From Minisyncoccota bacterium (lineage in GTDB: Bacteria; Patescibacteriota; Minisyncoccia; Phycocordibacterales; UBA9973): a stretch of 64,000 nt of DNA. The notes below the pieces were generated by a model. It had not been told where the DNA came from and ran no database searches. It saw only the letters and a program-made list of their open reading frames with translations. Positions 17,687-20,078 of this stretch are shown piece after piece. Numbering within the stretch: position 1 is the stretch's first letter; the number at the start of each line of letters is the position of its first letter. Location of the stretch: positions 14-64,013 of the forward strand of contig JAYSVN010000005.1 in NCBI GenBank assembly GCA_043718505.1. Direction: 5' to 3'. Position numbers and translations under genes: made by a program.

Positions 17687-18841
17687 ATGACAGACCAGAA
17701 ACCCCAGAAACTCCTTGAACAACTAGAAAAAAATCGAGAAAAATTCAAAAAATTTAACCCAAGTGATCAGGCAATGCCAGGCAAAATCTTCGGTATGCCG
17801 CACAGTAAAGATGATGCAATGATGCATGTTTTTCCGATCAATTCTGCCATTACTGTTTCCGGCACTGAAGGTGCTGAAAACGGACCAGACGGGCTCCTTG
17901 AAGGTTCGGCCTGTATTGAATTATTTAATAAAAACTACAGGAGAGATGCATATCTGCCCGGTATGTACTTATTAGAAAAAGATAATGCAATCGGAGATCT
18001 GCATAAGAAAGGAAGAAATATCTTTCTTGAACTCATCAAAACTGACCTGGAAATTGCACGAACTTTTGATGCAGATAAAGTTAATGAGTTTTGCGAATTA
18101 CTCAATAGCCGCGTTGAAAATTGGATAAAAAAGTCTCTTGATGATGGTCACATTGTTGCTGCAATTGGCGGTTGTCACGGATCTATTTACGGAGCAGTTG
18201 CTGCTCATGCAAAAAAGTATAAAGATTTTACTCTCTTGATGATAGATGCACACCTTGATCTTCGCAAAGCCTATGAGGGTGTGACATACTCTCACGCAAG
18301 CGTCATGTGGAACATTCTCAACAATATTCCGGAAGTGAAGCATCTAGTTTGTGTGGGTATTCGCAGTTACGGACTCGATGAATATGATTTTGTCAGAGAT
18401 AACCGTAATCGTGTCAGCGTATATTACGCTGACGATATGCAAGAATCGCAAGACAAAAAATCTGCGAGTTGGCGTGATATTTGTCAGATAATTGTAAATT
18501 CAATTCCAACAGAAGATGTCTACCTGAGTTTTGACCATGATGGTTTTGAAGTTCACTTATGCAGCAGCACAGGTACGCCAGTTCCCGGAGGTCTTTCGAT
18601 GTGGCAGGCAAAAGTGCTCATTGAAACAATTGCCAGAGAAAAAAGAATCATTGGCTTTGATCTCAATGAAATGGTGCCAAACACTCAAGTTGACCGAAAT
18701 AGTGCCGCTGAAATTTTTTACCATATGTATTATTGGACTATGGTGTCACGTGGTGTTTTTCCGGCCGAAGAAGTGGGAAAGGCTCCTGAAAAAACGGGCA
18801 AAGTATTAACAGAGAAAGTAGATAGAGTTTCATTACAATAA
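17687..18841 (+). CDS. Arginase/agmatinase/formiminoglutamase-family ureohydrolase
   Basis: Metal-binding motifs GGCHGS..., MIDAHLDLR, SFDHDGFEV..., GFDLNEMVPN in the arginase-fold order. Confidence 0.7.
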   Translation: MTDQKPQKLLEQLEKNREKFKKFNPSDQAMPGKIFGMPHSKDDAMMHVFPINSAITVSGTEGAENGPDGLLEGSACIELFNKNYRRDAYLPGMYLLEKDNAIGDLHKKGRNIFLELIKTDLEIARTFDADKVNEFCELLNSRVENWIKKSLDDGHIVAAIGGCHGSIYGAVAAHAKKYKDFTLLMIDAHLDLRKAYEGVTYSHASVMWNILNNIPEVKHLVCVGIRSYGLDEYDFVRDNRNRVSVYYADDMQESQDKKSASWRDICQIIVNSIPTEDVYLSFDHDGFEVHLCSSTGTPVPGGLSMWQAKVLIETIAREKRIIGFDLNEMVPNTQVDRNSAAEIFYHMYYWTMVSRGVFPAEEVGKAPEKTGKVLTEKVDRVSLQ

Positions 18842-18848
18842 CACAAAC

Positions 18849-18878
18849 AAAGCCTCCGCAAGGGGGCTTTTTAATTTT
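18849..18878 (+). terminator. Rho-independent terminator
   Basis: AGCCTCC-GCAA-GGGGGCT hairpin followed by TTTTAATTTTT. Confidence 0.6.
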
Positions 18879-18965
18879 TGACTTAAATACCTAACTATGA
18901 GAATATTGGCGCAATCGGGCGATGTTGTCCTCCAAAAATAAATAGTTAAACTAAAACCACAGACT

Positions 18966-20078
18966 ATGCTAAAAGAAAAAATCCGCGGACTAAGTCGCCC
19001 GCTTCGAGAAAAAATTGTCATCGGTGACAGAAAGTATAAACCGAGTCGAAAATCTCCTATATCAAACTATCTTGTACACACAAAACGCCATTGCAACGGC
19101 GGAAGAACTGTCGATGCCGGATTATGGGCAAGAAACTTTTGTGATAAGGGAGGAAAAATATTTTTCTCTATGGCTGGTGCCGGATCGTCGTTTGAAATTG
19201 GCGTTACTCTTTCTGAAATGATCAGACAAGGTAAAATTGCCTGTATTTCAGTAACCGGGGCAAATCTCGAGGAAAGTTTGTATCGATATCTTTCACACAA
19301 AGATTATGCATACATTCCTCATTATGATGAACTGACCAGGAAAGAAGAGAAACAACTTGATCACGCCGGTTTTCGCCGTATTACAAGTACATTTTTGCCA
19401 GAAGAAGAAACAGTCAGAAAAGTTCTTGATAAATTCACCATGCTTCTTCGCGAAGCTGAAAAAAACGGGAAGCAAATGTTTTGGCATGAATATTTCTTTG
19501 AATTATTCAGACGTAGATTAGTGAAGCCTGATCGTAAGCAAAATGCCAAAGATTGTTGGCTTTATCAGGCCTGGAAACATAATGTTCCGATTGTAGTTCC
19601 GGGTATTGAGGATTCGACCATGGGCAATATTATTGCTTATTTTTCCTACAGAGGAAATCATCCTTTTTTGCAAAAGTATAAGCAAGTGCTACCTATTGAT
19701 CTAAAAGTAATTAAACATTCATTCAGCTATATGCATTGGCTGGCAGAATGGTATCTGGACAATACCAAGAAAAAAAGTCTTGCTTTTATGGAATTTGGTG
19801 GTGGTATTTCGGCAGATTTTCCAATCTGCGTCGTACCTCATCTCAAGAAAGATTTTCTTGACGGTCTTACGCCCAGAGCTCAGGAGAAGCTTATTAGGGC
19901 TTGGGCAGGATTCATTGCTATTTGTTCTTCACCGATGAGTTATGGCTCTTATTCTGGTGCCGGCTATAAGGAAAAAATAACTTGGAGCAAGCTTGAACCT
20001 GATACATTCGGATGCAAGATTGAAGGTGATTACACTGCGCATGGTCCGGATATTTTTGCATTGGTATTGCGATGGTGA
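18966..20078 (+). CDS. Deoxyhypusine synthase-like protein
   Basis: Collinear with DHS motifs: FFSMAGAGSSFEIG (cf. GYTSNLISSG), ISVTGANLEESL (cf. VTTAGGVEEDL), VPIVVPGIEDSTMGN (cf. PVFSPALTDGSLGD), EFGGGIS (cf. ILGGGVVKHH), SSPMSYGSYSGAGYKEKITWSKL (cf. [23 protein letters not shown]). Confidence 0.6.
   Translation: MLKEKIRGLSRPLREKIVIGDRKYKPSRKSPISNYLVHTKRHCNGGRTVDAGLWARNFCDKGGKIFFSMAGAGSSFEIGVTLSEMIRQGKIACISVTGANLEESLYRYLSHKDYAYIPHYDELTRKEEKQLDHAGFRRITSTFLPEEETVRKVLDKFTMLLREAEKNGKQMFWHEYFFELFRRRLVKPDRKQNAKDCWLYQAWKHNVPIVVPGIEDSTMGNIIAYFSYRGNHPFLQKYKQVLPIDLKVIKHSFSYMHWLAEWYLDNTKKKSLAFMEFGGGISADFPICVVPHLKKDFLDGLTPRAQEKLIRAWAGFIAICSSPMSYGSYSGAGYKEKITWSKLEPDTFGCKIEGDYTAHGPDIFALVLRW

Follow-up and report, generated by a model that had tools for sequence, protein, structure and literature searches.

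The question raised by the locus was what an arginase-family ureohydrolase and a deoxyhypusine synthase (DHS) homolog, encoded side by side, would do in a bacterium of the candidate phyla radiation (CPR). The two genes lay on the same strand within a 64,000-nt stretch of contig JAYSVN010000005.1 from the Minisyncoccota assembly GCA_043718505.1 (hereafter, the window): the ureohydrolase gene at 17687–18841 (+, 384 aa) and the gene of the DHS homolog, here called DS, at 18966–20078 (+, 370 aa). An earlier note on this DNA had placed both open reading frames (ORFs) at exactly these positions and had read them either as a compact polyamine module or as a route of EF-P/IF5A modification. The pair was probably composed of a SpeY-type diagmatine synthase and a diagmatine ureohydrolase (DUH)-like enzyme, which together would make homospermidine from agmatine; what was shown directly in its support was the protein fold, the set of catalytic residues, the signature of the pocket, and, across the clade, repeated linkage and fusion of the genes. 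The homospermidine end of the polyamine module proposed earlier was therefore retained, while the path to it was likely agmatine plus agmatine to N1,N9-bis(guanidino)homospermidine (G44G, also named diagmatine or caldomycin) and then to homospermidine, not one via putrescine (PMC13625781, PMC10981699).

The DHS homolog matched Pfam DS (PF01916) at E 1.5e-26 and was collinear with human DHS (hhalign probability 99.1); its AlphaFold2 model (pLDDT 91.2, pTM 0.90) had exclusively DHS structures as its top 50 PDB matches in Foldseek, with TM-scores of about 0.59–0.77 depending on normalization and 14–20% identity, and the DHS-like assignment of the earlier note was thereby borne out. Residues were mapped by a MAFFT alignment of human DHS (the sequence used being identical to PDB 1rlz over residues 1–369) with 113 clade sequences, and hhalign provided an independent second map. 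The window protein kept the human catalytic K329 as K342, W327 as W340, E323 as E336, E136/E137 as E102/E103, D238 as D216, and D342 as D355, together with the GGG motif (human 282–284, residues 278–280 here); K342, W340, and E336 were invariant in all 113 clade sequences, and the hhalign map agreed. Lee, Um, and Park reportedly established in 2001 the NAD-binding role of human E137, D238, D313, D342, and GGG 282–284. Human NAD-site D313 corresponded to Y, F, or A in the clade. The pseudo-enzyme envisaged by the earlier note, with the catalytic Lys and NAD-binding residues absent, was thus not what was found (K342, E103, D216, D355, and GGG were all present), but the spermidine-binding residues that it had also wanted checked were lost: human D243 and D316 were replaced by N221 and Y329, respectively, in 113 of 113 clade sequences by MAFFT and again by hhalign, with CPR, Peribacteria-type, and Bacteroidota members included. 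The clade additionally displayed a 7-residue insertion after GGG ('GGGIA[AG]DFPICVVP'). Both maps put P291/H292 at the position of human His288, the catalytic base, H292 being found only in the close CPR clade; an invariant D284 had the same +4 offset from GGG as His288 and was located, in the AlphaFold2 model, on the helix starting right after GGG.

The closest biochemical precedent was the caldomycin synthase CdmS/SpeY (TTHA1570) of Thermus thermophilus, paired with SpeB and proven to couple two agmatines into G44G; only two of its pocket residues are unlike those of human DHS (D243 to Phe and D316 to Leu), and it keeps the catalytic Lys (K299) and the Glu equivalent to E323 (PMC10981699). 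The window protein likewise kept this Lys and Glu and lost D243 and D316, but it had Asn/Tyr instead of Phe/Leu, differed in the His288 region, and scored 39 bits on the G44G-synthase model NF002699.

The ureohydrolase matched Pfam Arginase (PF00491) at E 5.5e-43, and its six metal ligands H164, D187, H189, D191, D283, and D285 were invariant in the subfamily alignment, in which the guanidinium-binding E328 was nearly so; the arginase fold with binuclear-metal motifs, recognized by the earlier note, was accordingly confirmed. Its best NCBIfam match was agmatinase TIGR01230 (130.8 bits, below the cut-off of 174.3), as against 56.4 bits on formimidoylglutamase TIGR01227 (cut-off 229). On these scores a HutG identity was rejected, so that the grouping with formiminoglutamase that the earlier note had named as a possible refutation did not occur; the neighbouring genes included no detected hut genes. 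A guanidine hydrolase GdmH identity (Sll1077; PDB 7esr/7oi1) was rejected as well, on 26 bits to 7esr vs 63 to the agmatinase 3pzl. The protein belonged to a non-SpeB subtype of the 'agmatinase family', which had about 350 aa in most members and an insertion of about 40 aa relative to SpeB, and which had only about eight close clusters in CPR and many relatives in Cytophagales (e.g., Fulvivirga). The CPR members contained 'GGCH' (C163 in the window protein), while the Bacteroidota relatives contained GGDH and SpeB contained GGEH. All close CPR homologs that were checked adjoined a DS gene.

Both proteins were thus real but divergent members of their families, since they had clear Pfam matches yet fell below every curated NCBIfam equivalog threshold. 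For the DHS homolog, the scores were 63 bits on the SpeY model NF001980 (cut-off 450), 39 bits on NF002699 (cut-off 500), 55 bits on TIGR00321 (cut-off 304), and 57 bits on NF002006 (cut-off 434).

The homolog search with the DHS homolog gave at least 7996 matches, the best 120 of them at 53–77% identity, and the named proteins among these best 120 were all from Patescibacteria (Minisyncoccia, Pacebacteria, Absconditabacterales, and 'Patescibacteria group'); the mean column identity was 61% over 31 members. A scan of species-representative genomes for the motif EDSTMGNI extended the clade to (i) Peribacteria, Peregrinibacteria, and Doudnabacteria at 45–49% identity; (ii) many Bacteroidota at 38–41%, including cultured Chitinophaga, Flavisolibacter, and Myroides; and (iii) Vulcanimicrobiota. 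When 1.84 billion representatives were searched exhaustively, only 790 DHS-superfamily sequences had E ≤ 1e-3, and 47 had E ≤ 1e-30; the full-length representatives at 33–55% identity displayed N/Q/S at D243, Y/F at D316, and 'GGGxxxD', none of them reached a curated SpeY or DHS threshold, and Gemmatimonadota was the only named group among the cluster members of 10 representatives. The clade is a third large bacterial DHS-like group, which current models label just as 'deoxyhypusine synthase family protein'. A tblastn search of plasmids gave no match. No report on homospermidine chemotaxonomy of Chitinophaga or Chitinophagaceae was found in the literature that was searched. Four loci from metagenome-assembled genomes (MAGs) labelled Burkholderiales/Bdellovibrionota (L006, L010, L019, and L020) held a CPR-type DS, 62% and 46–47% identical to that of the window, which may reflect mis-binning or recent transfer.

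Against this background, the view of the earlier note that bacterial DHS-like proteins are rare, of unclear function, and unexpected in CPR was superseded. SpeY enzymes were characterized in 2018, 2024, and 2026, the first of these reportedly being that of Anabaena. Homologs were numerous, with all named proteins among the best matches from Patescibacteria, and clusters with speY were on record for Peregrinibacteria and CPR as early as 2023 (PMC10407285).

In all, 96 loci were fetched with flanks of at most 10 kb on either side, and neighbouring ORFs were clustered and Pfam-annotated. Recurrent neighbours of DS were polyamine enzymes: (i) a PLP-dependent Orn/Arg decarboxylase of alanine-racemase fold near DS in 12 loci of CPR and Bacteroidota; (ii) a PAD_porph agmatine-deiminase homolog (AIH) plus CN_hydrolase beside DS in Peribacteria and Doudnabacteria, with arginine decarboxylase (ADC) too in the Peribacteria loci; and (iii) SpeB-type agmatinases in L041, L078, L080, and L084 (non-CPR) and L018 (CPR), those of L018 and L080 passing TIGR01230 with 201 and 188 bits, respectively. 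DS clustered with ADC and/or deguanidylating genes in L094, L009, L011, L016, L017, L080, L024, and others, including a tight ADC–SpeB–DS operon in Bacteroidales L080 and an 8-bp overlap of ADC with DS in L024. Among the first 84 loci fetched, only 5 had an arginase-family gene no more than 10 kb from DS, so the pairing was not universal, but arginase–DS adjacency recurred in four or more CPR contigs, with either gene order and with differing ureohydrolase subtypes: L093 (DS 77% identical) had Arginase then DS, as in the window, while L085 (64%) and L087 (61–62%) had DS then Arginase. DS was followed by PAD_porph (AIH) and then by Orn/Arg decarboxylase in L094 (68%), and it stood alone in L095 (65%) and L096 (64%).

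Gene fusions pointed in the same direction: AdoMet_dc (SpeD-like) domains fused to DS domains of this clade were found in P0248 and P0274, and a triple fusion in P0242. One SpeD-like/DS fusion of 756 aa had an NNMT/PNMT-like methyltransferase domain in between. SpeD homologs clustered with speY are pyruvoyl arginine decarboxylases (PMC10407285). In the close CPR relatives L001 (CP006913.1, SR1), L003, L005–L008, L095, and L096, the conserved DS-like gene had neither ADC nor ureohydrolase nor AIH within 8–10 kb, and the DS-like gene of L095 occupied the same syntenic slot as that of the window.

The partners of DS were found to be interchangeable between close relatives. The window and L093 shared DS at 77% identity but ureohydrolases at only 41%, that of the window being of GGCH type and that of L093 carrying GGDHS and being nearer to the Fulvivirga copies; L085 and L094 shared DS at 81% identity, but the partner was a ureohydrolase in the former and AIH plus ADC in the latter. 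The DS and ureohydrolase phylogenies were in conflict. The region 13063–35728 of the window was compared with L087 (Pacebacteria MAG GCA_018062505.1): the flanking core genes were 71–98% identical (HU 98%, NusA 92%, and RNase Y 90%), but identity fell to 61% for DS and to 54% for the ureohydrolase, which were far more diverged than the flanks and swapped in order; as judged from sequence, this suggests a xenologous cassette replacement at a fixed locus. Overall, the locus appeared to be a fixed site of cassette exchange, at which SpeY stays while its deguanidylating partner changes. Precisely such a transferable module, 'speY + duh or speY + dih', is proposed by Li et al. (JBC 2026; PMC13625781), and the interchangeable partners of the L085/L094 and window/L093 pairs fit into it. 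The residues, the ortholog operons, the fusions, and the lack of any detected efp (see below) together matched the window pair to the 'speY + duh' form of this module.

For the substrates and products of the two proteins and for the agmatine source, we infer the following course. The DHS homolog would use NAD+ and Lys342 to oxidize one agmatine, hold the resulting 4-guanidinobutyl group as an enzyme-imine, and transfer this group to the amine of another agmatine, the coupled product then being reduced to G44G; the binuclear-metal ureohydrolase would take both guanidino groups off G44G as urea, leaving homospermidine. The agmatine would be supplied either by an arginine decarboxylase whose gene lies elsewhere in the genome, or externally, by host or environment.

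In the SpeY plus DUH pathway (PMC13625781), as here, a DHS-homolog gene adjoins an arginase-family gene, ADC or AIH plus NCPAH are present in the clusters of relatives, and the partner swapping corresponds to 'speY + duh' / 'speY + dih'; the window differed in that its DS clade failed all curated SpeY models and had the insertion after GGG, its ureohydrolase was non-SpeB with GGCH, no ADC was nearby, and the two genes were apparently separately terminated. Archaeal/eukaryotic DHS (EC 2.5.1.46) shared with the window protein the fold, the NAD-site residues, and the catalytic Lys–Trp–Glu triad, but the latter had no spermidine-binding Asp, no IF5A/EF-P gene nearby, and a polyamine-biosynthesis context. 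Bacterial homospermidine synthase (HSS) also uses NAD and ends in homospermidine, but it is non-homologous and putrescine-dependent; HSS and SpeY are mutually exclusive, according to Li et al. (PMC13625781).

Several observations weighed against an agmatine-dependent homospermidine module. The whole clade scored only 60–128 bits on the SpeY and G44G-synthase models, and no member with 'GGGxxxD / N221 / Y329' was tied to an experimentally tested enzyme; human His288 had no clear equivalent in the DHS homolog because of the insertion after GGG; the ureohydrolase was not orthologous to the validated DUHs, which are of SpeB/TIGR01230 type, and stayed below the TIGR01230 cut-off; a terminator-like hairpin separated the two genes; most sampled close CPR relatives had DS with no partner within 8–10 kb; and the 64 kb of the window yielded no arginine decarboxylase of any known fold. 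A variant of the reading was regarded as unlikely: the CPR SpeY-like enzyme, being widespread, strongly conserved, and usually without a nearby partner, might make G44G as an end product from host or environmental agmatine, with cassettes only in some lineages, or it might act on a non-polyamine acceptor, e.g., a protein lysine. If that were so, the Asp that invariably stands in for His288 and the ureohydrolase with its Cys would be marks of a subfamily with a distinct mechanism.

A putrescine route was considered improbable. In that scheme the ureohydrolase, as a genuine agmatinase, would supply putrescine, which the DHS homolog would join to a further putrescine or to spermidine to form homospermidine, in the manner of the DHS-derived homospermidine synthases of plants and viruses. 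Such a route would accord with the agmatinase as best curated match of the ureohydrolase, and with the Fulvivirga-type Bacteroidota copies of this ureohydrolase subtype, which occurred away from DS genes; but D243 and D316, the terminal-amine-binding acids of DHS, were N and Y throughout the clade, and AIH-type enzymes next to ADC served as alternative partners in close orthologs. All SpeYs tested by Li et al. are moreover agmatine-dependent and make free G44G, and a canonical agmatinase, they argue, would starve SpeY of its substrate (PMC13625781). Mere adjacency of unrelated genes, with the ureohydrolase breaking down arginine or guanidino compounds as, e.g., an arginase, guanidinobutyrase, or guanidine hydrolase, was the least credible explanation. 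The recurrence of the pairing in CPR contigs with both gene orders and differing ureohydrolase subtypes, its SpeB-type counterparts in four non-CPR loci and in CPR L018, the adjacency to DS of all close CPR homologs of the ureohydrolase that were checked, and similarities to Sll1077 (7esr, 26 bits) and HutG (56 bits) that lay far below those to agmatinases all argued against it, even though the hairpin and a promoter-like site between the genes and the low frequency of pairing (5/84) would suit it.

Modification of a protein lysine, i.e., attachment of a 4-guanidinobutyl or aminobutyl group to EF-P or another lysine by the DHS homolog and its trimming by the ureohydrolase to a deoxyhypusine-like residue, was judged very unlikely. 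The catalytic Lys and the DHS fold were kept, the DHS homolog was unusually conserved across CPR and often stood alone, and about half of bacterial EF-P types are without known modification (PMC13602936). The combination of ADC, DHS, and agmatinase was also formally compatible with the aIF5A model of Haloferax volcanii, which likewise involves agmatine, a DHS homolog, and agmatinase (PMC5178350); that model, however, concerns protein modification of aIF5A in an archaeon, while no target was evident here. A tblastn search with E. coli EF-P detected efp neither in the window nor in the 1.58 Mb from the 96 fetched loci, and no EFP domain was present among the window ORFs scanned, so the efp or aIF5A-like targets for which the earlier note had suggested a search did not turn up in this material. 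The partners included AIH and an N-carbamoyl amidohydrolase, a two-step route typical of small-molecule polyamine pathways, and these partners as well as the SpeD-like/DS fusions pointed to free polyamine; every bacterial SpeY homolog tested so far makes free G44G (PMC13625781), and reviews see no evidence tying bacterial DHS homologs to EF-P (PMC12856214). The EF-P/IF5A route proposed by the earlier note was thus left unsupported, because D243/D316 were lost, orthologs were clustered or fused with agmatine-pathway enzymes, and no efp was found in the searched sequence.

Under the preferred reading, that of a SpeY-type synthase with a DUH-like partner, the finding is real yet largely explained by existing work on the two-enzyme homospermidine module; what is new is the membership of an unmodelled clade, the non-orthologous ureohydrolase partner, and the evidence for partner swapping. 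With it, a large divergent clade of CPR/Patescibacteria, Bacteroidota, and other phyla would join the SpeY route from agmatine to homospermidine, a second arginase subfamily, of non-SpeB type, would be added as recruited SpeY partner, and the cassette exchange 'speY + duh / speY + dih' put forward by Li et al. would have examples in nature. As for CPR, the finding suggests that a polyamine step with NAD+ as its sole requirement is kept in these reduced genomes, some of which may rely on an external supply of agmatine. The gene pair opens no route to bacterial hypusination.

The 124-nt spacer between the two genes contained a terminator-like hairpin (18849–18880, +; 9-bp stem plus T-run; a consensus match only), which suggests, on sequence grounds, that the genes form separately terminated units and not a tight operon. 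It was followed by a promoter-like site upstream of DS (18878–18907, +; TTGACT, 18 nt, AATATT), a weak consensus match at 9/12; such promoter-like sites were not enriched relative to shuffles. Further terminator-like hairpins lay 3′ of DS (20110–20143, +) and 3′ of the upstream ORF (17580–17613, +), the latter being the 5′ boundary of the ureohydrolase unit. No riboswitch was found near the pair (Rfam). The ORF directly 5′ of the pair (16911–17558, 215 aa) had no Pfam or NCBIfam match; on this ground, and because L093 had no homolog of it and L087 only a weak one (27% identity) in the corresponding place, it was rejected as a hidden decarboxylase or conserved partner.

Four tRNA genes were located 5′ of the pair (12401–12725 and 15162–15354), namely Arg-TCG (−), Gly-GCC, Pro-TGG, and Gly-CCC. 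The window further contained two TrmB-family regulators (64–855, −, and 20190–20942) and a XerC-like integrase (5911–6957). No Y RNA was found next to the Ro60/Rsr gene of the window (Rfam). This gene, encoding TROVE plus vWA domains (22055–23698), was part of a block of about 6.4 kb (20190–26500) that also comprised a TrmB-like helix-turn-helix regulator, a 1.1-kb ORF-free stretch, and small ORFs of unknown function; the GC content was 0.476 at 22001–24000, compared to 0.37–0.41 around it. The block was missing from the syntenic Pacebacteria loci L087 and L095, in which the DS/Arginase genes abutted RNase Y, and it was probably an inserted island.

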